A DNA stretch of 64,000 nucleotides from positions 278,605-342,604 of the forward strand of contig JAHBTE010000001.1 of NCBI GenBank assembly GCA_019638675.1, written 5' to 3'. Position numbers and translations under genes: made by a program. This document shows positions 1-12,042 of this stretch, one piece after another (positions within the stretch are counted from its first letter, which is position 1; each line of letters begins with the position of its first letter). Under the pieces are notes generated by a model. That model was not told the origin of the DNA and ran no database searches. It worked only from the letters and a program-made list of their open reading frames with translations. This stretch comes from Fimbriimonadaceae bacterium. GTDB taxonomy: Bacteria > Armatimonadota > Fimbriimonadia > Fimbriimonadales > Fimbriimonadaceae.

Positions 1-880
1 AGTTGTGCGTATCTGGCTTGAGTGCCGCTTCAATACTCACCTTGCTGGGCGAACCAATTGGACCGGGCGGCAATCCTGCGTTCAAATAAGTGTTGTAGGG
101 AGATTTCACTGTCCGTACAACTCCCGGGCCAAGAACTTTCCATTCGCCCAAAGCGTACAAAACGGTTGCATCGATTTCCAGCCGCATCCCTTTTTTGGTG
201 CGGTTTTCGATCACGCCGGCAACCATTGGTCGTTCCTTATCGAGAGCCGCTTCTAATTCGACCATTGAGCCAATAATCACCGCACGATTTAGGCCATCTT
301 CTCCTAATCCCTTAACTACCTTACTCTCGAACGCTTTGAGTTGGCGTTCGATCACCGCACGTGCGCCCAGCATCGGCGGCAGTTCGTATGTATCGGGATA
401 TAGATAACCTTCTAGCGAACCTACGGGCAACTTGAATTTCACGACATCTTTGAACTCTTCCGGCTTGTTCGCCAGTTCGATGTACTCTTCCTCAGTGCAA
501 ACCTGCTTATCCGCTAGCCGCTTTGCCACTCGCTTAATCCACCAGCCCTCAGGAATACGTACCATCTGAGAGATCGGCTTATTCATGCTGGCGATGATCT
601 GCTCGACTGTCTGCCCTGGTTGGAATTCATACGTTCCTTCCGCGACCGGTTTTGCATCGCCGTTGAACTTTACATACTGGGCGAAAACTTGCGGATTCCG
701 CACCACGCCCATTTTGCCAAGTTCGTTGACCGCACTCTTAAAACTGCGGGATGGCCACCGAACCATGACCTTCTTTCCAGATGGCATGGGTGCAATCTGT
801 GACTGAATCCAATTCACCCCTCCGAGGGCGATGATTGCTCCTAGCACAAGGCCAATCAGAAACTTAGCGAACTTAGACAT
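1..880 (-). CDS. mltG: Endolytic murein transglycosylase MltG (YceG-like); 3' end cut by window edge
   Basis: Absent from the ORF track because there is no stop inside the window. Manual translation from ATG 880-878 gives MSKFAKFLIGLVLGAIIALGG (TM anchor) ... RIPEGWWIKRVAKRLADK ... GSLEGYLYPDTYEL (YceG/MltG hallmark). The start overlaps the ruvX stop by 8 nt, the conserved ruvX-mltG arrangement. Confidence 0.8.
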   Translation of the reverse strand, partial: MSKFAKFLIGLVLGAIIALGGVNWIQSQIAPMPSGKKVMVRWPSRSFKSAVNELGKMGVVRNPQVFAQYVKFNGDAKPVAEGTYEFQPGQTVEQIIASMNKPISQMVRIPEGWWIKRVAKRLADKQVCTEEEYIELANKPEEFKDVVKFKLPVGSLEGYLYPDTYELPPMLGARAVIERQLKAFESKVVKGLGEDGLNRAVIIGSMVELEAALDKERPMVAGVIENRTKKGMRLEIDATVLYALGEWKVLGPGVVRTVKSPYNTYLNAGLPPGPIGSPSKVSIEAALKPDTHN

Positions 881-1280
881 GGCTCTCCTTAAACCTGTCC
901 AAGATTCGGCAGGCGGCTTCCGAATCCAGGCGTTTTTTTCGTTGGCTGGCTTTCATCCCTGATTCGTGCATAGCGGTAGAAGCTTCTACGCTCGTCAGGC
1001 TCTCATCCACATAGAAAACTGAACCGCCTAACGCTTCTAACTCAGCTCCGAACCTGCGCATTACACTTGCCATTTTCCCCTCTAATCCGTTTTCTAATGG
1101 GAGACCAAGTACATATCCTTCGGCGAGTTCTTGTTTGCCAGCCGCAAACACCTGATGAGCATCGCTTTTGAGCGCACCTTTAGCGGAGATCGGCTGCAAC
1201 GCGCGGGAAAGTCCAGTTTCAGTTTCCATCACTGCCAGGCCGATGCGGGCTTTGCCAAGATCAACCCCCAACACCCTCAT
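873..1280 (-). CDS. ruvX: YqgF/RuvX Holliday-junction-resolvase-like nuclease
   Basis: 135 aa. N-terminal MRVLGVDLGKARIGLAV matches the YqgF/RuvX RNase-H-fold signature. 4-nt overlap with the upstream gene. Confidence 0.85.
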   Translation of the reverse strand: MRVLGVDLGKARIGLAVMETETGLSRALQPISAKGALKSDAHQVFAAGKQELAEGYVLGLPLENGLEGKMASVMRRFGAELEALGGSVFYVDESLTSVEASTAMHESGMKASQRKKRLDSEAACRILDRFKESHV

Positions 1281-2053
1281 GATTGAAACGTCCTTGTCAC
1301 CAAATCTTTTAACCCAGGAGTCACACTCACCAGTTCCAAATCTCCCGATTGGGCCGGGTCATTCAATGGCTTGTCGCCGTTAAACTTCATAGCAACGCCA
1401 CCCGCTTCCTCCACGATTGGAATCACTGCGCTGATATCCCACCGACTCACCACTGGGTCGAGCATCATCTGGATTCGCCCACCAGCCAGAAGCATATGAC
1501 CGTAAGCGTCACTCCAGGTTCGACAAGCCATGACTTGACGGGCAATGGACATGGCTCCTTCTAGACGATTGTATTTTTCGAGCGACGTGGGACTGCCCGT
1601 GCTCATCACGACCCTTTTGAGTTCAGTTTCGTTACTCACCTGAATCTTTTTCCCGTTACAGAACGCTCCGCCGCCCCGTTCCGCCCAAAACATCTCCCCC
1701 AACGCGGGAAGATAGACCACTCCTAAAGTTGGCTGGCCAGCTTGCTCATAACTGAGCAAGGTCGCATAGAGTGGCACTCCGCTGATAAACGACTTTGTGC
1801 CGTCAATCGGATCAAGCACCCACCGGTCGTCTCCACTGCCCGTGAGCCCTTCTTCTTCACCCAGAACCGATTCACACGGGAACTGCTCGCTCAGCAACTG
1901 CCGCATGAGTCGCTCCGCGTTCTGGTCGGCGATGGTGACCGGTGAATCATCGCCCTTGAGATCAACCGCCGCGTTTTGCTGGAAGTGCAACAGGGTGCCA
2001 TCTCCCGCGGTTCTCACGATTTCAATCGCTTTTGATAATCTCTCTGAGTTCAA
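1277..2053 (-). CDS. Inositol monophosphatase family protein (SuhB/HisN-like)
   Basis: 258 aa. WVLDPIDGTKSF and LGEEEG metal-binding motifs of the IMPase superfamily. Confidence 0.8.
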   Translation of the reverse strand: MNSERLSKAIEIVRTAGDGTLLHFQQNAAVDLKGDDSPVTIADQNAERLMRQLLSEQFPCESVLGEEEGLTGSGDDRWVLDPIDGTKSFISGVPLYATLLSYEQAGQPTLGVVYLPALGEMFWAERGGGAFCNGKKIQVSNETELKRVVMSTGSPTSLEKYNRLEGAMSIARQVMACRTWSDAYGHMLLAGGRIQMMLDPVVSRWDISAVIPIVEEAGGVAMKFNGDKPLNDPAQSGDLELVSVTPGLKDLVTRTFQS

Positions 2054-2174
2054 AGCACCTTCATTCTGACAGGCTAGGCGTAGGGTTGCCGTTAAAATCG
2101 CCCCTGTGCCTATTAAGACCCGATGCAGACCCGCCGATAACTTTTCGTGAGGGTAATATTCTCATTCAATTCGT

Positions 2175-2250
2175 GGGGGCTTAGCTCAGTTGGGAGAGCA
2201 CCTGCTTTGCATGCAGGGGGTCAGGGGTTCGAGTCCCCTAGCCTCCACCA
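2175..2250 (+). tRNA. tRNA-Ala(TGC): tRNA-Ala (anticodon TGC), CCA encoded
   Basis: Manual cloverleaf: acceptor GGGGGCT/AGCCTCC with the Ala identity G3:U70 pair, D arm GCTC-AGTTGGGA-GAGC, anticodon arm CCTGC-TTTGCAT-GCAGG, T arm AGGGG-TTCGAGT-CCCCT, discriminator A, CCA. 76 nt. Confidence 0.95.
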
Positions 2251-2259
2251 CGAAGATTT

Positions 2260-3093
2260 TTACTGTAATTTCACACAAACCGCCTGAACCACGGCGATTC
2301 GATTCTCTGCCAAATTCCTCTGCACGTTTCCGAGTTTGGTCTTTGCCTCATCGCCCAACAGCAGATGCAATCCCAGCGGCGGCGGGCCGGAATCTTTGAT
2401 CTTTGCCAGCATCGCCAAAAACCATTCGTTGGAATACGCCGTTTTATCTTCCCACTGCAAGATCTCAAACCCAGCTTGGGAGATCGTTTCCTTTGCACTT
2501 TCGGGAGTGACCAAGTGGCTGATTTCTGGCCCGGGCGCCCAGGGAACCGGGAAGTGAACGTCCCCGCCTTCGCCTTGAAAAATATCGTGGAAAACCAGTT
2601 TGCCGTCCGGTCGAAGAACGCGATTTAGCTCTCCGTAAAAAGCAAGTTTGTCGGCAATGTTCATCTGGACGTGCTCCGTCCACACCACGTCAAATACTTC
2701 GTCTTCAAACGGCAGTTCCAGCGCACTGGCTTGCCAAAACGAAACCTGGTTCTGCATCCCCACCAAGTCGGTGAGCGCAACCGCCGTATCAATGTATTCC
2801 CCTGTCAGGTCAACCCCGGTTGCGATAATCCCGAACTCTTCGCAGAGATACCGAACTGATCCCCCGAGCCCGCACCCGACATCCAGTAGCCGCTGTCCGC
2901 GCTCAAGTTTTGCGAGATGGGCGAGTTCGGTTGTTGATTCTCGCCCGCGAATATGAAACTCATCGACCGGAGCCAGGTCTGCGGCAACGAGGTGGTTTAA
3001 ATCCTTCCCGATTGCTAAAAGAGCTGTCAAGATCGAGGTCAGAATATGGCCCGATTCGTAGTTTGCAATTACTCGATTCGTGGCCTCGTTCAT
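2260..3093 (-). CDS. Class I SAM-dependent methyltransferase
   Basis: 277 aa. SAM-binding motif I LLDVGCGLGG followed by the acidic loop GVDLT. Substrate not inferable. Confidence 0.75.
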   Translation of the reverse strand: MNEATNRVIANYESGHILTSILTALLAIGKDLNHLVAADLAPVDEFHIRGRESTTELAHLAKLERGQRLLDVGCGLGGSVRYLCEEFGIIATGVDLTGEYIDTAVALTDLVGMQNQVSFWQASALELPFEDEVFDVVWTEHVQMNIADKLAFYGELNRVLRPDGKLVFHDIFQGEGGDVHFPVPWAPGPEISHLVTPESAKETISQAGFEILQWEDKTAYSNEWFLAMLAKIKDSGPPPLGLHLLLGDEAKTKLGNVQRNLAENRIAVVQAVCVKLQ

Positions 3094-3217
3094 ATTTCCA
3101 TTCAGCTCCCAGTTTTGACGTTTAGATGCGTTTCGTCTAACTCCTAATATGCCTGATCAACCCGCTAAAGATGAAAGAAATATGAATCGAAAATTTATTC
3201 TCGCAATGGTAGGATGA

Positions 3218-3685
3218 ATGCCCATGTCAAATGTTGTTCCCATTCCCGAAGGATTCAATACGATTACCGCTTACCTGATTGTCGACGGAGCGGATGCGGC
3301 AATTGAACTCTATAAAAAAGCCCTTGGAGCCCAAGTGATGAGCGTTCATAAAATGCCAGATGGCAAGGTGCTCAACGCCCAACTGAAAATCGGTAATTCC
3401 ATGCTGATGCTCAACGACGAGTGGCCAGATTGGGGCGCAATCGGGCCGAAGAAAATCGGCAACACTGCAGTCACCATGCACTTGTATGTCGAGGATGTGG
3501 ACGCCGCATGGCAACGGGCGGTTGATGCAGGATTTGAAGTCAGCATGCCGCTGGACAATGCTCCCTGGGGCGACCGGTACGGCAGTCTGAAAGATCCGTT
3601 CGGTCACAGCTGGTCAATGGCAACTCACATCGAAGACGTTTCGGAGGAAGAACTGATGGAACGCTTCAAAAATATGCCGATGTAA
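3218..3685 (+). CDS. VOC (glyoxalase/bleomycin-resistance, PhnB-like) family protein
   Basis: 155 aa. N-terminal ITAYLIVDGADAAIELYKKALGA and C-terminal WGDRYGSLKDPFGHSW are typical of PhnB-type VOC proteins. Confidence 0.7.
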   Translation: MPMSNVVPIPEGFNTITAYLIVDGADAAIELYKKALGAQVMSVHKMPDGKVLNAQLKIGNSMLMLNDEWPDWGAIGPKKIGNTAVTMHLYVEDVDAAWQRAVDAGFEVSMPLDNAPWGDRYGSLKDPFGHSWSMATHIEDVSEEELMERFKNMPM

Positions 3686-3730
3686 TCGGTTTTTAGTAAG
3701 GGGTTTTGACTCATTGACGATCGAAGCCCC

Positions 3731-5356: not shown

Positions 5357-5531
5357 GAAGGGGCAGTTTTAATTATTTGGGCGTTAGACAGATCGTCCTT
5401 GCCCGATCACATCTAACGACCCGTTCTGGGTCGATCATATTTCATGATTCAAATATTCTTGCATAGTTAACTTTATTTGTCAAGTAAGTCCTACTAAGTT
5501 TTATGCGAAATATGGCTTTTAATTCCCCTCA

Positions 5532-6371
5532 ATGATATTTAGCAGAACTCTCAATCAACATTTAGCGTCTTTTCAAAACAAGATGGTTCCAGTTCTTGCG
5601 CTCCTGATGATCCAAACCGCGAACACTCCCCACTGCAAAGTTGAGTTGATAGCGGAAAACACCGCCATCGCCCCCGGCGAATCAGCGCGAATCGGGGTTC
5701 GTGTCTCGATGGATGACGGATGGCATATTTATTGGAAGAATCCGGGCGATTCAGGAATCCCCACTAAAATCAACTGGAATTTGCCGAAAGGCTGGAAAGT
5801 CAGCGACATGAAGTGGCCCACGCCTCACGCTATAGAAGCAGAAGGATTTACGTCTTTCGGTTACGATAACTCAGTTCTATTTATGACCCGAATCGTCACG
5901 CCAAAGGATGCGAAAATTGGCTCGAAGATTCTGGTCTCTGCGGACATGGAGTTCCTCATCTGCAAAGAATCTTGTCTGCCGGGGAACGCCAAGCTCTCTA
6001 TGTTTCTTAATGTAGGTGAGGCAGCCTTAATCAAACCGACGAAATGGGCCGAGGAATTTGAGCGAACAGCATTTCATCTGCCGCGATCAGCCGCCAACTG
6101 GAAACTCTCGGCACGAAAGGTCGACAGTGTCATTGTTCTTTCTGGACAGCACCCAGATTACGCTCAAATAGGGGCTCTGAGATTCTTTGGAGAAGAGCCA
6201 GGAGTTTTTGATACTGGTGCGCTTCCACCTGCGATCTCAAGATCAGCAGGCGTGTTCACTCTGAACATCCCAATCTCTCCTTACGCCTCCGAAATTCCAA
6301 CCCAAATTAAGGGTGTGCTCACCGGATTTGGAACTCACAGCTACGAAATTAGTGTACCAATAACAAATTAA
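5532..6371 (+). CDS. DsbD N-terminal (DsbC/DsbD-alpha-like) thiol:disulfide interchange domain protein, secreted
   Basis: 279 aa. DGWHIYWKNPGDSGIPTKINWNLPKGW and LICKESCLPG (Cys pair) match the DsbD-alpha/'disulphide bond corrector' domain. Hydrophobic N-terminus. Confidence 0.65.
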   Translation: MIFSRTLNQHLASFQNKMVPVLALLMIQTANTPHCKVELIAENTAIAPGESARIGVRVSMDDGWHIYWKNPGDSGIPTKINWNLPKGWKVSDMKWPTPHAIEAEGFTSFGYDNSVLFMTRIVTPKDAKIGSKILVSADMEFLICKESCLPGNAKLSMFLNVGEAALIKPTKWAEEFERTAFHLPRSAANWKLSARKVDSVIVLSGQHPDYAQIGALRFFGEEPGVFDTGALPPAISRSAGVFTLNIPISPYASEIPTQIKGVLTGFGTHSYEISVPITN

Positions 6372-7073: not shown

Positions 7074-7105
7074 ACTCGGATCAGGCTATGCCTTCTGATC
7101 CGAGT
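7074..7105. terminator. Hairpin between convergent genes (10-bp stem ACTCGGATCA/TGATCCGAGT), probable terminator
   Basis: Perfect 10-bp inverted repeat 7074-7083 / 7096-7105. The stop codon of the minus-strand gene (7086-7088) lies in the loop. The minus-strand reading is followed by ATTTTG. Confidence 0.45.
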
Positions 7106-7820
7106 TCATTATATATAAACTATCAGTGTTTACATCACAGTGGGGCTTCGCGCCTTTCTTAATAACGGGCAAGTCGAGCATCATCCACCTATGCGACAAG
7201 GCCACTGGCCAAGTGAAGCAGTTTAGTTGCGAATTCTCAGCGAAAATTTGGAACACTACGTTGTCCCCAGTTATTGAATCAACTAGAGCTACATACTGCA
7301 AAGATTTGATTTCATCCGAAATCTCGCATTGAATATTTTTTATTCGCGAATGACCGTCTGCGGTAGCGAAGTGATACAGTTCATTGATGTACGGAATTGC
7401 TATTTGGTTTGCCAGGCTTAAATATATGATGCATTCGGCCTTACCAGCTGATTCTCTGAAAAGCGAATCAAATGTAGCCTCAATTATTTGTATTGACTCA
7501 ACGGCAGCCCTGATCACAACCGTGTCGAAATTCAAATCATTTGACTCTAATACGCTGGTCAATGTAGTAGCCGAATGCGTAATGCAAGCTGGACTGGGCA
7601 CTGAATCGAAATTTTTGAGCAATTCTAATAGAGGAGTTGGAAGCCTCGACAAATTATCCTTAGCTCGATACAAAGCTACCCGAATTGCCTCTGCAGACTT
7701 GTAGTGCTCAGCCCCCCCCGCCTTCATGCGGCTGAACAGCACGTCGCTTAACTGGGATATCGTGTTTGAGCCAGTAAGCTGAAAAAGCTCATTTACCGAT
7801 GTTCGCTCTGATACAACCAT
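7086..7820 (-). CDS. Hypothetical protein
   Basis: 244-aa ORF, AT-richer by eye, no recognisable motif. Divergent from 7968..8339 across a repeat-bearing intergenic region. Confidence 0.45.
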   Translation of the reverse strand: MVVSERTSVNELFQLTGSNTISQLSDVLFSRMKAGGAEHYKSAEAIRVALYRAKDNLSRLPTPLLELLKNFDSVPSPACITHSATTLTSVLESNDLNFDTVVIRAAVESIQIIEATFDSLFRESAGKAECIIYLSLANQIAIPYINELYHFATADGHSRIKNIQCEISDEIKSLQYVALVDSITGDNVVFQIFAENSQLNCFTWPVALSHRWMMLDLPVIKKGAKPHCDVNTDSLYIMNSDQKA

Positions 7821-7893
7821 TGACCGTATTATATCAGAGAAATAGTACAGACGATACAGATATTTAATTAGTTTCAGAAATTATTTTCTAATT

Positions 7894-7911
7894 GATACAA
7901 TTTTTTGTATC
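7894..7911. promoter_or_regulatory. Operator-like palindrome GATACAA-TTTT-TTGTATC with extra TGATACA half-sites nearby
   Basis: Perfect 7-bp inverted repeat at 7894-7911 in the AT-rich divergent intergenic region. Further GATACA copies at about 7811, 7853 and 7916. Confidence 0.35.
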
Positions 7912-7967
7912 ATCTGATACACTAGTATTGCACGGAGGCAAAATCTTAATGGAGCAGAAACCAGAAA

Positions 7968-8339
7968 ATGCAAGAACATGTACTTTGGGCCGCAGTCTTT
8001 GCGGGTCCGTTCGCCCTCTTACCAGATGCTGTTCGTTGGCTAATTCATAAAAATTCGACACGACCAGTGTTGTTGCGAGTTATTGATGAAAAAGCTATGC
8101 CAAGGCGCGGCGTAAAGGTGCTCATCAATGAGAATTTTGTAGTTACAGTCGGGGAATCGGGGGAAATTAACGCTCGAGTTCCAAGAAGTGGATCCATTAC
8201 ATGCCACGTTTTCGACAATGATCAGCCAATGCTTATTGAGAACAGTATTAAGGGAGTATTTCACTTTAAACGTTCTTTCGCGGAAACAGAATCGACGGTT
8301 ATTCTAATAGTGCGCCCCCTTCCAAAACACTTACGTTAA
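7968..8339 (+). CDS. Hypothetical protein
   Basis: 123-aa ORF followed by a strong terminator. No recognisable motif. Confidence 0.4.
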   Translation: MQEHVLWAAVFAGPFALLPDAVRWLIHKNSTRPVLLRVIDEKAMPRRGVKVLINENFVVTVGESGEINARVPRSGSITCHVFDNDQPMLIENSIKGVFHFKRSFAETESTVILIVRPLPKHLR

Positions 8340-8376: not shown

Positions 8377-9963
8377 TTAACTCAAGAAGTCGGCGATCAC
8401 TTGAGGAACTGAGGAATCGAACCCAACAATGTTGAGCGTTCCCGCGTCCCGAGGATCGGCGATCGTGTTTCGAGTTGAAGCCATCGCGACCACGATCAGC
8501 TTCGCATCAATTCCCATCTTGGTTCGGTATTCAGCAATTGCTTCCGCAGGATGCTGAGATCCGTACCAAGTTTCCGAGTCTGTGTAAAGGATAAAGGCAT
8601 CAGCCCGAATCCTCTTGTCAATCGCGTATCGGATTGGCGCGGCGCAGTCGGTTCCTCCACCACCCGTTCGGGCGAGCAAGTTCACGACCTTATCGAGCCT
8701 TTCCTTTCGCGAAATCTTGAGCGGATACACGGAGGTATCGAATGCGAGATGAGTAACCTCACCTTCAGTCGCTTCGTGGATCAGAGCCATAGCTCCCGCT
8801 GCCTTTCGGCAGTCAAGGCCAGCGACTCCCGCCACTTGCGTTCCAACCATTGATCCAGAAACGTCGAGTCCGAGGACAAGTCGCTTTCCGATCGCAGGCG
8901 CAATCTTGAATGAGGCGTAAAACGCTTCATCCAACACATCCAGTATCGCTTGAACTGGCTTCCAGCTTCCGCTTCCTCGAACACCATGCCCGAGAGCGTA
9001 AGTGTTCAAAGCCGCGAGAATCCCGATTGGGTGAATCCGTGCTCGTTCCAATCGACCCGAATCCCGAAGGAGTTCGATAATCTTTTGAACCGAATCCGAA
9101 TTTCCACTCAGCCATCCATGCTTAAGCAAACCAACTTTCGTCATGTTCCCCAAGTTCCGGATAACCGCGGTGAGAGGCATATCCGCCAGCAACGCTTCCC
9201 AAATCGCAGATTCAGTTAGCATTTCCGTAGGAATTGCTTCTCGTGGAAGCCTACTCTTTCGAATCATGTCTGCCGCTTGGTTGACATCCTTGATTTCTCG
9301 CAATGCAAGCATTGCTCGGATCATTTGGAGGTCTCCGGTGACTTCACCATCAACCACCCACTTGAACAAAGCGTTTTGCTCTGCATCGTTAGTTTGCGGG
9401 TGCGACAATCGGAGTAAGTCTCGGTGAGACCACCCTTCTCGTGCTTGGTACTTCACCAACCCGTATTCCAATCGGTCGGTTGGTTGAGCCAAGTACCAGT
9501 TTGCAACCGCCTTCCGCATTCCTCGACCCCAACCTCGAAGCCCGCTGCAAACTTCGGCAAAGGCAAAGAGGTGAGTTCCAGTTCGGCAAACGAGAGGCAA
9601 TGCCTTCAGCGCCGCCGAGCGTGTCTTGTCGTCTCCAAGCGAGGCAGCCAATGCCAACGCGAAGATTGCAGGATCATTTTTTGGTGCGAGGCCGCTTTGG
9701 CTTGCGTCGACAATTCGCTCAACCACTCGCTCTCCATCTTCCTTAATGACCTCGATGACGTTCTTCGCGTGATCCGCCGTGAGCTTTTGGGCTCCGACGT
9801 AAAACGTTCCGTTTTCGCTACCAAGGATCAAGAATCGGTCGAGTAAGTTCCAGCGATCCACACTCCATCCAAATCCGCCGGCATGGTTTCGACGCTGCCC
9901 TGCATAAGGGAGCGGCTTCCGTTGCGACGTCTTGGTTGTGTTCATCAACTTGCTGTACTTCAT
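8377..9963 (-). CDS. rsr: Ro60-related protein Rsr (TROVE domain plus C-terminal vWA domain)
   Basis: 528 aa. N-terminal RRNHAGGFGWSVDRWNLLDRFLILGSENGTFYVGAQKLT is the TROVE signature. C-terminal vWA MIDAS motif LGLDVSGSM. AAGGAGA ribosome-binding site 13 nt upstream of the ATG. Confidence 0.9.
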   Translation of the reverse strand: MKYSKLMNTTKTSQRKPLPYAGQRRNHAGGFGWSVDRWNLLDRFLILGSENGTFYVGAQKLTADHAKNVIEVIKEDGERVVERIVDASQSGLAPKNDPAIFALALAASLGDDKTRSAALKALPLVCRTGTHLFAFAEVCSGLRGWGRGMRKAVANWYLAQPTDRLEYGLVKYQAREGWSHRDLLRLSHPQTNDAEQNALFKWVVDGEVTGDLQMIRAMLALREIKDVNQAADMIRKSRLPREAIPTEMLTESAIWEALLADMPLTAVIRNLGNMTKVGLLKHGWLSGNSDSVQKIIELLRDSGRLERARIHPIGILAALNTYALGHGVRGSGSWKPVQAILDVLDEAFYASFKIAPAIGKRLVLGLDVSGSMVGTQVAGVAGLDCRKAAGAMALIHEATEGEVTHLAFDTSVYPLKISRKERLDKVVNLLARTGGGGTDCAAPIRYAIDKRIRADAFILYTDSETWYGSQHPAEAIAEYRTKMGIDAKLIVVAMASTRNTIADPRDAGTLNIVGFDSSVPQVIADFLS

Positions 9964-10019
9964 TTGTTTTCTTTTCTCCTTGTTTTAGTTTTTTGGTTTA
10001 TGTTTTCTAGTGCAAAAAT

Positions 10020-10129
10020 CTCACAGGCAAGTGGTGCTCTGGCTGTTTTACTAACCATAAGGTTAGCCCCAGGGGTCGAACCTGGCCTGCTTTCGCATAA
10101 CCGATAAGCCACAGGCATCGGCCCGTAAG
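10020..10129 (-). ncRNA. Y-RNA-like module d (Ro-binding helix plus tRNA-like T arm and closed acceptor hairpin)
   Basis: Minus strand. 5' CTTACGGGC[C]GA (10129-10118) pairs with 3' TTGCCTGTGAG (10030-10020), leaving a bulged C. Internal CCAGG-TTCGACC-CCTGG T arm (10085-10069) is followed by hairpin GCTAACC-TTAT-GGTTAGT (10067-10050). Ends 56 nt upstream of the rsr ATG. Confidence 0.7.
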
Positions 10130-10142
10130 AACTCTCTACAAA

Positions 10143-10293
10143 CCTTCAGGCAAAAAGCGAATCTGGGCCAGATTGCCAAAACCGCGCTCTAAACGCCTCA
10201 CCTTTAATTTCAAGATGGCCGGCCTTTCCGCCGAAGTTTCCCAATACAGCAACCCGATGGTGGAGGGATAACCCAATTTCATCGGCCCGAAGG
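10143..10293 (-). ncRNA. Y-RNA-like module c (Ro-binding helix, non-tRNA-like effector domain)
   Basis: Minus strand. 5' CCTTCGGGC[C]GA (10293-10282) pairs with 3' TTGCCTGAAGG (10153-10143): 11 bp with one bulged C. Internal hairpins include AATCTG-GCC-CAGATT and CCGATG...CATCGG. Confidence 0.6.
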
Positions 10294-10309
10294 TCAAAAT
10301 TGTTGTCGT

Positions 10310-10441
10310 GTACGCGGACAAGGGTCGTCCTGGACATGATGCTCTACCACTGAGCTACTAACCGATTACTCGGTTAGGCTGGATTCGAACCAGCGACCAT
10401 CCACTTAGAAGGTGATAATCCAATGACTTCGGCCCGCGCAC
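10310..10441 (-). ncRNA. Y-RNA-like module b (YrlA-type: Ro-binding helix plus permuted tRNA mimic)
   Basis: Minus strand. 5' GTGCGCGGGC[C]GA (10441-10429) pairs with 3' TTGTCCGCGTAC (10321-10310). The interior reads T arm GCTGG-TTCGAAT-CCAGC (10394-10378), closed acceptor CTAACCG-AGTAAT-CGGTTAG (10377-10358), then D arm TA-GCTC-AGTGGTA-GAGC-A (10357-10340). Confidence 0.75.
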
Positions 10442-10457
10442 GTTAAATTGGGGAGGA

Positions 10458-10526
10458 GTACAGGCAAGTGATTGATCTGGCGCTTTTTTCGGTTTTTGAC
10501 GATAAACCAAACCATCCGGCCCGTAC
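10458..10526 (-). ncRNA. Y-RNA-like module a (short, about 69 nt, Ro-binding helix only)
   Basis: Minus strand. 5' GTACGGGC[C]GG (10526-10516) pairs with 3' TTGCCTGTAC (10467-10458), preceded by CAC as in the metazoan CACUUGAC 3' strand. Small A/U-rich interior. Confidence 0.55.
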
Positions 10527-10669
10527 AAAATTGGGTCTAAGGGAAGCGGGTCTGTCAGCCGCACTTCACAACGTCGATTATTAATGTTCTCTAGTGCCTC
10601 CGCCAAAACCCTGGGGAGGGAATCGACGCTGGTCACTCTAATGATTTAGAGTTCATTGCTTGGAGGCGG

Positions 10670-10700
10670 ACTATACCAAGCTTTCTGCGGGGTTTGTCAA
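10670..10700 (-). promoter_or_regulatory. Sigma70-type promoter reading toward the Y-RNA array and rsr
   Basis: Minus strand. Perfect -35 TTGACA (10700-10695), 19-nt spacer, extended -10 TGgTATAGT (10678-10670). Lies 54 nt downstream of the stop (10755) of the preceding same-strand (minus) gene and about 135 nt upstream of module a. Confidence 0.5.
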
Positions 10701-10754
10701 GGGTCTCAAAAAACTTTTAACAAAATGGGACCACTGCTCACCAAGTGGTTAGGT

Positions 10755-11501
10755 TCAATTGAGTTGAGAAATTACTTTTTCAATAAAGTCCCGAAGTTCT
10801 TCCAAATCCGGGCTATGAGCTCCGCCGTTTTGGCGATTGTCCAAGGCGATTTTTACGAGATCATTTTCAGGAAACTCCTGCAAATACCACTCCCCACCCT
10901 GCGACTTTGAGACCAGATCGCCCGTTTGCTTAAACCTGAGCGCGCGGCAAGCGTTGAGGGTGGAGTTTCGGCCAAATGGATCATGGTAAGGGTCACCCAG
11001 CTTTGTAAGGTGCCACGAAATGCCTTTGCGAAGCTCCTCTAAAATCCATTCTTTGGGGATGGGTGCGAAAACTCCTTCAGGGACTGGCCGGAATGAATTG
11101 AATAAATCGATTCCATATCGGCGTGCTATTTCGAAGTGGATCAGTAGTTCGCTGTCTTCACCCGGGCCATGCTCCTCAGTACGCCACGAACCCCCTACTG
11201 AAATTCCAAGCTCATAAGTAGGAATACGTTTTGGTTCCCTGAATTCTCCTGGCTTAACTAAACACAGTTCTATCCCTTTGTAGTGATTAACCCAAACGGA
11301 TAACAGCGATTTTATTCTCTTTTTCATCCACGGTTCAACCGGACACTCAATAACTCCTATCAAGTCAATATCACTCGATTTTGAATGGAAGTCGCCTTGT
11401 GCTATTGACCCGACAACATATAATCCTTCGAGCCAGTCTTCTGTTGCGTTCTTTAATACGATTTGTAGTTCTACTAATGTATCTTTCAGTTCTGAATCCA
11501 T
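10755..11501 (-). CDS. AadA/ANT(3'')(9)-like nucleotidyltransferase with DUF4111-type C-terminal domain
   Basis: The track ORF extends to 11546 (TTG start). The ATG at 11501 (MDSELK) abuts the upstream stop. NTase motif GSIAQGDFHSKSSDIDLIGV. The C-terminal NSTLNACRALRFKQTGDLVSK parallels AadA NVVLTLSRIWYSAVTGKIAPK. Confidence 0.65.
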   Translation of the reverse strand: MDSELKDTLVELQIVLKNATEDWLEGLYVVGSIAQGDFHSKSSDIDLIGVIECPVEPWMKKRIKSLLSVWVNHYKGIELCLVKPGEFREPKRIPTYELGISVGGSWRTEEHGPGEDSELLIHFEIARRYGIDLFNSFRPVPEGVFAPIPKEWILEELRKGISWHLTKLGDPYHDPFGRNSTLNACRALRFKQTGDLVSKSQGGEWYLQEFPENDLVKIALDNRQNGGAHSPDLEELRDFIEKVISQLN

Positions 11502-11502
11502 G

Positions 11503-12042
11503 TTAGTTACAGGCGGGATCCAAGCCTGGATCGGAATAACCAGCAAGAGACACTATATACGTAGTGCCCGTGCTCGGATGCTTTGGCCAATGTAAACTAT
11601 AGTCTTGGACATCGTATACGTGACTGAGATGAACGTCATCCTCAGCATCAAAAAACAGCAGTTCGGGAACAGCATAGTGTGCTGGCTCATTAAAACCACC
11701 TTCTACCCAAACTTTTATTCCATCATAATAGTCTTTTATCTCGGTTTTGCTGAGTGAACTATTCCGCATTTCACCGGCCCAGAACATACAATAGTTGCTT
11801 GATCCCCCTAACACGCCATAAGTGTCAATTACTGTTAATACTTTGTTGGTAGATGGATGGCTCAAATACTTATAGGCATCGCGATACCGTGATTGATGCA
11901 TCATGTTCCTGGCTGCATCAACTGAGCCCAATCCAACGACGCCAATGATTGGAACCATTATGACCCCGGATAGTATTGCTACAGGGATAAGGAAGGAAAT
12001 TGCCAACTCTTTGGCGATATTTACTTTAGTACGTTTAGTCAC
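11503..12042 (-). CDS. Hypothetical membrane-anchored protein
   Basis: 179 aa. Single N-terminal TM segment (LAISFLIPVAILSGVIMVPIIGVVGLG). 4-nt overlap with the upstream gene. Confidence 0.45.
   Translation of the reverse strand: MTKRTKVNIAKELAISFLIPVAILSGVIMVPIIGVVGLGSVDAARNMMHQSRYRDAYKYLSHPSTNKVLTVIDTYGVLGGSSNYCMFWAGEMRNSSLSKTEIKDYYDGIKVWVEGGFNEPAHYAVPELLFFDAEDDVHLSHVYDVQDYSLHWPKHPSTGTTYIVSLAGYSDPGLDPACN

Follow-up and report, generated by a model that had tools for sequence, protein, structure and literature searches.

A predicted array of four Y RNA modules upstream of the Ro60 gene of a Fimbriimonadaceae bacterium, one with a circularly permuted tRNA-like domain

Introduction

What is encoded directly upstream of rsr, the gene of the Ro60 orthologue, in a Fimbriimonadaceae bacterium of the phylum Armatimonadota, and how are the pieces of tRNA in that region to be understood? 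The DNA analysed here is a 64-kb stretch of this genome (the window), whose coordinates are used throughout; rsr and the region upstream of it are read on the minus strand. An earlier reading, made from the sequence alone, had pointed to a T arm, a closed acceptor-like hairpin and a D arm in that order, had compared this to the Y RNAs of the YrlA type and had proposed a second, eroded copy nearby. We find that 10700-9964 (-) is best explained as encoding an array of four Y RNA modules (a to d), in which b is of the YrlA type and d follows a second conserved design, and we put the probability of this at roughly 85%.

YrlA occurs in Salmonella Typhimurium and in more than 250 other bacteria and phages, and a crystal structure of its tRNA-like domain is available as PDB 6CU1 (PMC4201824; bioRxiv 10.1101/312249). 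It is defined by the motif GNCGAAN0-1G, a V stem-loop beginning with YUAY, then T, closed acceptor (AS) and D stem-loops, in proximity to rsr and on the same strand, and it carries pseudouridine 55 (Psi55) and dihydrouridine (D) modification, introduced by TruB and DusA (PMC4201824). Rsr binding, polycistronic precursors and the tethering of PNPase are described for YrlA, YrlB and Yrn1 (PMC4201824; bioRxiv 10.1101/312249). In Mycobacterium smegmatis the acceptor stem of YrlA has 7 bp, and in vivo this RNA is cleaved by RNase P and has CCA added to it; one precursor yields both it and YrlB, which has the T arm only (PMC4201824). The YrlA of Salmonella is without an anticodon loop, and an origin of these RNAs from a dimeric tRNA transcript has been discussed (Wang et al. 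2018, bioRxiv 10.1101/312249). Lastly, a functional importance of the sequence UUAUC in nematode stem-bulge RNAs has been reported, and vertebrate Y RNAs also contain it (PMC4726728).

Results and Discussion

Four modules with a Ro60-binding-like helix lie beside rsr

The product of rsr is a protein of 528 aa with a TROVE ring (Pfam PF05731, 3.4e-38) and a Ro60 von Willebrand factor A (vWA) domain (PF25045, 5.9e-57), and its gene is preceded by an AAGGAG Shine-Dalgarno sequence. The array is found 56-565 nt upstream on the same strand (Table 1). Each module is closed by a bulged helix, with GGGCCGR...GGNUUAUC on the 5′ side and YUUGYCY on the 3′ side, similar to the Ro60-binding helix of Y RNAs. 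A motif search of the 64 kb for GGGCCGR-N5-12-GGNTTATC returned four copies, all of them in this intergenic region and all with a TTGYCYG partner downstream. Moreover, GGNUUAUC stands directly after the stem in 4/4 modules (10414-10421, 10501-10508, 10267-10274 and 10103-10110, -). The GNCGAAG motif is exact in module b, and modules a, c and d carry one-base variants of it (GCCGGAU, GCCGAUG).

Module b has the layout of YrlA

Module b aligns end to end (10312-10435) with the Rfam YrlA model RF02553 at 41.1 bits (E 1.6e-7), with a 13-nt insertion at an anticodon-like hairpin. Between its end and the start codon of rsr (9963), which lies downstream on the same minus strand, are 347 nt, well within what is expected of a YrlA (at most ~4 kb, same strand), and it contains GCCGAAG (10433-10427) in the place of GNCGAAN0-1G. 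The V region follows, with UUAU-C at 10418-10414, a hairpin at 10414-10402 and a UGGUC that ends in C, for which the D loop offers G15 (the Levitt pair 15:48). The T loop UUCGAAU comes before the D arm GCUC-AGUGGUA-GAGC, with columns that are conserved or invariant in 12 orthologues, and between the two lie the closed AS stem-loop (10377-10358) and UA (10357-10356). Module b has every sequence and structural feature in the definition of YrlA, the Rfam score cut-off excepted. From this comparison we assign it to the YrlA-type Y RNAs, a kind known since 2014, and predict that its distal domain is a circularly permuted tRNA, so that the permuted layout proposed by the sequence-only reading is borne out by the YrlA match and by the Ro60 gene next door.

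The individual strings of that reading were also recovered where it had placed them: the T arm at 10394-10378, the acceptor hairpin at 10377-10358, and TA, D arm and A at 10357-10340. The anticodon-loop-like CTTCTAA (10411-10405) and the variable region ATGGTC (10400-10395) are present and conserved. The acceptor hairpin is a real closed stem, as had been supposed, but instead of 7 bp and a 6-nt loop it is better described as 8 bp under a GUAA tetraloop of the GNRA type; its outer 7 bp are equivalent to tRNA pairs 1-7:66-72. The window's own tRNA-Asn has the same 17-nt D arm string. In minimum free energy (MFE) folds of modules b and d, the T and hairpin arms form inside a long closing stem, with z scores against shuffles of -4.4 (b) and -3.1 (d).

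A further part of the tRNA can be traced in module b. U27 and C28, which follow A26, pair with the GA just 5′ of the variable loop (helix 4), and the hairpin 10414-10402 lies directly 5′ of that. The 2-bp helix 4 and the 3-bp hairpin are thus predicted to rebuild a 5-bp anticodon stem with a 7-nt loop, the 5′ strand of which is interrupted between positions 28 and 29, where the Ro-binding stem (helix 2) enters.

Covariation supports the structure of module b

With the Rsr protein as query we fetched 75 related loci (labelled L001 and so on). The closest Rsr relative, at 97% identity, is from a Fimbriimonadaceae metagenome-assembled genome (MAG), and the environmental runs that contain the sequence are from sludge and freshwater. 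Armatimonadota relatives, with Rsr 50-69% identical, have roughly four to seven such modules upstream of rsr, of recurring types. An alignment of 12 b-type modules from Armatimonadota was scored on a structure of 36 pairs. In this alignment 94.2% of cells pair, versus 32-43% when the partners are slid, and compensatory changes are seen in 19/36 pairs; none of 500 shuffles reached the observed values. The D stem shows no variation, in agreement with what is published for YrlA. The outer pairs of the acceptor-like stem covary (compensatory changes in 3/4), and the stem itself ranges from 5 to 14 bp among orthologues, with GNRA or UNCG caps. Both pairs of helix 4 are formed in all 12 sequences, with compensatory changes, and many pair types are found across phyla. 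In the loop of the anticodon-like hairpin, U at the second position and A at the sixth are the same in all 12 sequences; 2/3 pairs of the hairpin show compensatory changes, and it recurs in several phyla.

The covariance model R1, built from this alignment, scores module b at 124 bits. In 76 sources (the window and the 75 loci) it finds 151 matches, every one of them on the rsr strand, with strong matches beyond the seed in Poribacteria, Obscuribacterales, Chloroflexota, Actinomycetota and others. The same elements are therefore found, again on the rsr strand, in dozens of further genomes. Absence from orthologous loci had been named beforehand as the sign of chance similarity; the elements are present there, and chance similarity is not indicated.

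These data bear on the proposal that the tRNA-like pieces are decaying tandem tRNA pseudogenes, or arose by chance, and have no function. An order of T before D can also be imitated by dimeric tRNA genes, as PMC4201824 cautions, tRNA arrays adjoin rsr in other phyla, and the 5′ two-thirds of module b reach 23.5 bits on the Rfam tRNA model. Against this, every variable helix shows compensatory changes, and the nucleotides of the tertiary contacts do not vary, among genomes whose Rsr is only 50-69% identical; further arguments are the strand bias of the R1 matches and the E value of the YrlA match. Moreover, the acceptor strands pair with each other across the tetraloop, not with partners in tRNA genes. 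We regard decay or chance as scarcely credible.

In Obscuribacterales and related loci (L036, L039, L040, L041, L042 and L045) YrlA lies immediately downstream of rsr (~5518-5723; 1915-2054 in L040). Additional tRNA-like Y modules (L004:565-705, L004:716-852, L008:3300-3432 and L009:3534-3657) have D arms with long D loops (GCCAAGUCAGGUUAAGGC, CCCAAGUGGCCRAAGGG, GACGAGUGGUUAAAGUC) that recall class II tRNAs, so some arrays hold two or three different tRNA mimics.

Module b is called as a tRNA only when un-permuted

We sought conventional tRNA calls at the locus. ARAGORN called three ordinary tRNAs in other parts of the window but none in 9964-10754, where the Rfam tRNA model scored 10370-10436 at 23.5 bits, below its threshold of 29. 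A native-order cloverleaf call thus fails with both tools, module b is not a canonical tRNA gene, and the expectation that tRNA scanners would ignore the region was correct. The modules were then un-permuted in silico, by opening the acceptor loop and joining position 28 to 29, and passed to ARAGORN. All 14 un-permuted b modules from Armatimonadota were called as complete tRNAs, as were several from other phyla, whereas the controls gave 0/14 for native modules and 0/700 for shuffles. The module of the window was called as tRNA-Arg(UCU). Un-permuted YrlAs with a mini-hairpin (Poribacteria, Obscuribacterales) were not called by ARAGORN. Independently of these calls, 10377-10412 is matched at ~89% by contigs of other organisms that extend into the 5′ half of an ordinary tRNA; the metatranscriptome considered below brought this likeness to a tRNA 3′ half to light. 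The 'anticodon' varies among orthologues, namely UCU, GUU, CUU, GUC, GAU, AUU, AUA, AUC and CUA. The shape of the loop is conserved and its coding capacity is not, which argues against a role in decoding.

Could module b then be the gene of a permuted pre-tRNA, in which removal of the Ro stem, ligation of position 28 to 29, opening of the acceptor loop by RNase P or RNase Z and addition of CCA would yield a functional or aminoacylatable tRNA? The un-permuted module has a full cloverleaf, a 7-bp acceptor stem, discriminator A and a U33/A37 loop, the M. smegmatis YrlA with its 7-bp stem is processed in just this way at its acceptor end (PMC4201824), and Wang et al. mention that processing of this kind might occur (bioRxiv 10.1101/312249). 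Yet no bacterial splicing endonuclease of the required kind has been reported (Wang et al., bioRxiv 10.1101/312249). Triplets that change at one and the same locus, including the unusual AUU, AUA, AUC and CUA, are not under selection for decoding, the GNRA or UNCG caps and stems of 5-14 bp fit a permanently closed stem, and the module always sits inside a Ro-binding helix beside rsr. We consider a pre-tRNA highly improbable. The caps and the range of stem lengths imply that closure of the acceptor hairpin is the conserved state; cleavage by RNase P, suggested by a 7-bp acceptor stem, was rejected as a conserved property on the same grounds.

Module d belongs to a maintained class without a D arm

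The T arm (10085-10069) and hairpin (10067-10050) of module d were located exactly as the sequence-only reading had given them. R1 matches the module at 36 bits (E 3e-5), and a weak Rfam match (22.5 bits) is to ceN72-3, a nematode stem-bulge RNA family and Y RNA homologue. The interpretation of its 3′ part has to change. What had been taken for a degenerate D arm, AAAACAGCCAGAGCA at 10049-10035, consists of the linker AAAAC, then AGCCA, which pairs with UGGCU (10111-10107) as the 3′ strand of the module stem, then nucleotides of the lower stem.

Was module d a recent paralogue of b, with an intact and an eroded mimic left by duplication and divergence? Each of the two has a Ro helix and UUAUC, a small hairpin and a T arm, and their 7-bp hairpins are similar in sequence, with CUAACC and GGUUAG in both. 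However, independent MFE folds show the same layout in six further Armatimonadota genomes (L001, L002, L003, L006, L009 and L010), in which the helix sequences differ and all helices are maintained: Ro helix and helix 2, unpaired UUAUC-GGUWA, small hairpin, 5-bp T arm, a hairpin of 7-10 bp and a short linker. The comparison was made from separate folds, and counting of pairs in MAFFT columns was dropped because the 3′ strand of helix 2 slips register. The conserved segment GGUWA is absent from b, and the supposed D arm is linker and helix 2 strand. In the fetched loci we found 52 further modules with a Ro motif, UUAYC and a T arm but no recognisable D arm, common in other phyla, and T-arm Y RNAs that lack a D arm are widespread and published (YrlB, Yrn1). 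Erosion of a copy of b is accordingly very unlikely. Module d has the Ro helix and T arm, has no complete D arm and lies beside rsr with a YrlA, as T-arm-only Y RNAs do. Judged by its architecture it is a member of a D-arm-less class that is maintained and can be compared to YrlB and Yrn1, rather than a paralogue in decay; recent erosion is set aside by these data, while an ancient duplication may have given rise to both b and d.

In module d the conserved GG after UUAUC precedes the hairpin and the T arm on the 5′ side, an order that is normal for tRNA. The GG for docking on the T loop, which a D loop would otherwise provide, may come from the conserved, unpaired UAUC-GG-UWA, and by analogy with tmRNA this GG might be a D loop without a stem.

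Predicted transcription of the array

A candidate sigma-70 promoter, suggested by its TTGACA and TGG-TATAGT elements, lies 178 nt upstream of module a. It was read by eye from the sequence, its 19-nt spacer being beyond the range of the promoter scan. The TTGACA box aligns in 5/6 Armatimonadota loci, ~165-180 nt upstream of the first module. A terminator scan found no strong terminators between modules, and a U5 run is present only after the closing stem of module d (~10018-10014), 50 nt before the rsr start. As a separate observation, the box and a partly conserved structured leader of ~150 nt (window 10524-10705, -) come before the first module in five Armatimonadota genomes.

One conserved promoter, the scarcity of terminators and the position of the U5 run would be expected if the whole 700-nt structured region were a cis-acting 5′ leader of the rsr mRNA, binding Rsr for autoregulation or sensing tRNA, and not a source of trans-acting small RNAs. 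Four Ro-binding helices right upstream of rsr could titrate Rsr. Y RNAs at the same position in M. smegmatis and Deinococcus radiodurans are nevertheless processed from polycistronic precursors into stable Rsr-bound RNAs, and a YrlA downstream of rsr, as in the six Obscuribacterales and related loci, is incompatible with a 5′ leader. Moreover, the roles of leader and small RNA are not mutually exclusive. A leader function in place of small RNAs appears unlikely.

A model for the array

Under the Y RNA interpretation, the array is probably transcribed from one promoter, possibly together with rsr, and then processed into separate small RNAs. One precursor would yield four Rsr-bound RNAs, by analogy with M. 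smegmatis and D. radiodurans, the bulged helix of each module loading one Rsr ring. The domain of module b carries the nucleotides of the tRNA elbow and core (T arm, closed stem, U8-A9, D arm, 5-nt variable loop) and would fold into an L shape, to which the U-turn-type 7-nt loop on a 5-bp stem would add the part that completes the mimic in this lineage. Such a domain would be handled, and presumably modified, by elbow-recognising tRNA enzymes, for example TruB and Dus as in Salmonella, and its closed acceptor end would keep it out of aminoacylation. The L may serve as an effector-binding or protective domain. By analogy with characterised Y RNAs, module b could tether Rsr to a tRNA-binding effector or to one of RNA decay or repair, such as PNPase.

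Several observations weigh against the Y RNA interpretation or parts of it. The YrlA score of module b (41.1 bits) is below the Rfam gathering threshold of 69, and at gathering thresholds Rfam reports nothing at this locus. Of 15 related rsr loci in six phyla, not one reaches the threshold, which is therefore uninformative here; the cut-off reflects a narrow seed and not the absence of the family, and we dropped the gathering score as a criterion of membership. The indexed RNA runs were searched for the locus and none contains it. One metatranscriptome from a related sample matched 10377-10412 only, through the tRNAs of other organisms, and says nothing on expression. The known effector genes rtcB, rtcA and pnp were not identified among the flanking open reading frames (ORFs) scanned, ~7.1-16.6 kb of the window, and in a tblastn search of eight flanking ORFs against the 75 loci the flanking genes were common only to the near-identical L001. 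Helices at the three-way junction of module b may stack in another way, and in the published model the hairpin appears as a variable arm. Lastly, the D-loop role suggested for the GG of module d has conservation as its sole basis.

Comparison with known systems

Module b resembles the published YrlAs in its proximity to rsr, its GNCGAAG and YUAY/UUAUC motifs, the order V, T, closed AS, UA, D, the invariant D stem GCUC/GAGC and the tertiary nucleotides of elbow and core, including G15:C48. It differs in several respects. Both strands of the Ro helix are recognisable here, as in metazoa and Deinococcus, whereas only the 5′ strand is recognisable in Salmonella and M. smegmatis. The V hairpin has the geometry of an anticodon arm (3 bp with the 2-bp helix, 7-nt loop, U33/A37), such that the un-permuted module is called as a complete tRNA, whereas the YrlA of Salmonella is without an anticodon loop. 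Module b is also one of four tandem modules, has no rtcBA next door and falls below the Rfam gathering threshold.

M. smegmatis provides a close parallel, with YrlA and YrlB upstream of rsr on one precursor, a full module paired with a T-arm-only one as are b and d, and a 7-bp acceptor stem. There, however, the acceptor loop of YrlA is opened by RNase P and receives CCA, whereas the stem of b extends to 8 bp under GUAA and those of orthologues span 5-14 bp; cleavage by RNase P is therefore not predicted as a conserved property of b-type modules. Yrn1 and Yrn2 of D. radiodurans, for which the mechanism is best characterised (Rsr is tethered to PNPase), share a two-stranded metazoan-like Ro helix, a T arm without a full D arm and a polycistronic precursor. 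In contrast to the permuted module b, the tRNA-like elements of Yrn1 are un-permuted with a 6-nt 'anticodon' loop, and in module d the T arm is followed by an additional hairpin. Vertebrate Y RNAs and nematode stem-bulge RNAs have in common with the array the bulged Ro helix (GGUCCGA-like 5′, UUGACC-like 3′) and UUAUC after the stem, but they have no tRNA-like domain, come from separate Pol III genes, and the role of their upper stem in DNA replication is unrelated.

Permuted tRNA genes of Cyanidioschyzon merolae and of some other algae and archaea are matured by splicing endonuclease and ligase into real tRNAs. Module b shares with them the order 3′ half, acceptor loop, 5′ half and an acceptor stem closed in the primary transcript, but the anticodon stem of module b is broken in its 5′ strand (28/29), a Ro-binding stem is found at this point, and the anticodon is not conserved.

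The array would extend the experimentally defined bacterial Y RNAs to the Armatimonadota, a phylum without a characterised Ro60 RNP, in which the Rfam model at its threshold does not annotate them. For each of the three species characterised so far, two Y RNAs are on record; here there are four modules, and up to about seven in relatives. A complete tRNA mimic and nearby tRNA arrays are material on the origin of Y RNAs and on what the effector of YrlA recognises. It is mainly to the question of origin that the locus contributes, to a moderate degree, by its complete anticodon arm, its two-stranded Ro helix and its array of four modules, and by the link to tRNA arrays in other phyla.

A possible origin from dimeric tRNAs

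We tentatively propose, at somewhat less than even odds, that YrlA in Armatimonadota, in scattered Chloroflexota and in other lineages is a complete circularly permuted tRNA, whose V hairpin is the anticodon arm of an ancestral upstream tRNA, and that these modules, with the tRNA arrays and Ro-motif genes described below, are intermediates for the dimeric-tRNA origin of the Sim and Wolin model. Under this proposal the loop shape (U33, A37, 7 nt) would be under selection while the triplet drifts, and the 5′ two-thirds of the module would resemble a whole tRNA, the acceptor's 5′ strand having turned into the Ro60-binding GGGCCGA. An effector would then be implied that recognises not just the elbow but the entire L of the tRNA, as far as the anticodon loop. 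The 5′ two-thirds of YrlA modules do align to the whole Rfam tRNA model, at 23.5 bits in the window (10370-10436, -) and at 32.7 bits, above threshold, in L052 (3744-3809), which fits an origin from an upstream tRNA. This part comprises the Ro 5′ strand, UUAUC, the anticodon-like arm, the variable loop, the T arm and the 3′ strand of the acceptor.

Two sets of loci were noted separately. In L012, L014, L016, L022, L023, L030, L052, L065 and L074 the rsr and Y RNA cluster is directly downstream of same-strand arrays of 10-34 ARAGORN tRNAs. These are Chloroflexota MAGs and one Haliangium MAG, the arrays occupy ~1-3700 of each locus, and L012 has tRNAs downstream of rsr as well; a literature search found no paper linking tRNA arrays with Ro60. 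In the second set (L018:574-650, L030:1915-1985, L074:1717-1788, L020:1372-1450, L024:3317-3395 and L017:1647-1730) un-permuted tRNA-like genes have the Ro motif GGGCCGR...GGUUAYC as their 5′ end, followed by an anticodon arm with a 7-nt loop, a 5-nt variable loop, a T arm and CGUYCCCA. Some are called tRNA-Met or tRNA-Asn by ARAGORN. These genes may be Yrn1-like Y RNAs or intermediates between tRNA and Y RNA.

Other features of the locus

Table 1. Features of the array and of rsr on the minus strand of the window.
Feature	Coordinates	Description
Candidate sigma-70 promoter of the whole array	10670..10700	TTGACA 10700-10695, 19-nt spacer, TGG-TATAGT extended -10 at 10678-10670
Structured leader, promoter to module a	10529..10669	Partly conserved; GUCGA...UCGAC long-range pairing
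Module a	10455..10528	Short Y RNA-like hairpin; Ro helix GGGCCGG.../...CUUGCCUG; A-rich loop; without tRNA-like domain
Module b	10310..10441	Predicted YrlA-type Y RNA
Helix 1 of b (Ro-binding)	10441-10432 with 10319-10310	
GNCGAAG motif of b	10433-10427	GCCGAAG
Helix 2 of b	10427-10418 with 10335-10327	
UUAUC of b	10418-10414	
Anticodon-arm-like hairpin of b ('V' stem-loop of Chen 2014)	10402..10414	CAC-CUUCUAA-GUG; 3 bp and 7-nt loop; U33/A37 equivalents
Helix 4 of b	GA 10401-10400 with UC 10339-10338	tRNA pairs 27:43 and 28:42
Variable loop of b	10399-10395	5 nt, UGGUC
T arm of b	10378..10394	GCUGG-UUCGAAU-CCAGC
Closed acceptor-like hairpin of b	10358..10377	CTAACCG-AGTAAT-CGGTTAG; 8 bp under GUAA tetraloop
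U8-A9, D arm, A26, U27-C28 of b	10338..10357	UA 10357-10356; GCUC-AGUGGUA-GAGC 10355-10341; A 10340; UC 10339-10338
Module c	10142..10293	Y RNA-like; Ro helix; own internal domain; without tRNA-like elements
Module d	10019..10129	Predicted D-arm-less Y RNA
Helix 1 of d	10129-10121 with 10028-10020	
Helix 2 of d, upper part	10111-10107 with 10044-10040	UGGCU with AGCCA
Unpaired UAUCGGUUA of d	10106-10098	
Small hairpin of d	10097-10088	GAAA-capped
T arm of d	10085-10069	CCAGG-TTCGACC-CCTGG
7-bp hairpin of d	10067-10050	GCTAACC-TTAT-GGTTAGT
Linker of d	10049-10045	AAAAC
rsr	8377..9963	Ro60 orthologue, 528 aa; TROVE ring and Ro60 vWA domain

Short modules sit at the position of module a in L001-L010. 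The internal domain of module c has the conserved core CUUCGGCGGAAAGGCCGGCC; it was not matched in a permissive Rfam scan, and its 29 bits with R1 come from the Ro helix alone. The core, CUUCGGCGGAAAGGCCGRCC...GAGGYGU, is kept in L001-L006 and L008.

Modules a and b (10528-10310) are overlapped by a mechanically called, GTG-initiated ORF of 92 aa (10358-10636, -), which is almost certainly no gene and should not be annotated as one. The nucleotidyltransferase-like gene upstream of the array (10755-11546) was considered as a conserved partner and clue to the effector and was rejected, its tblastn match being only in L001. Between rsr and the next conserved gene, two ORFs without Pfam matches, 7086-7820 (-) and 7968-8339 (+), have no counterpart in the near-identical locus L001, and this segment (7086-8339) resembles an insertion.

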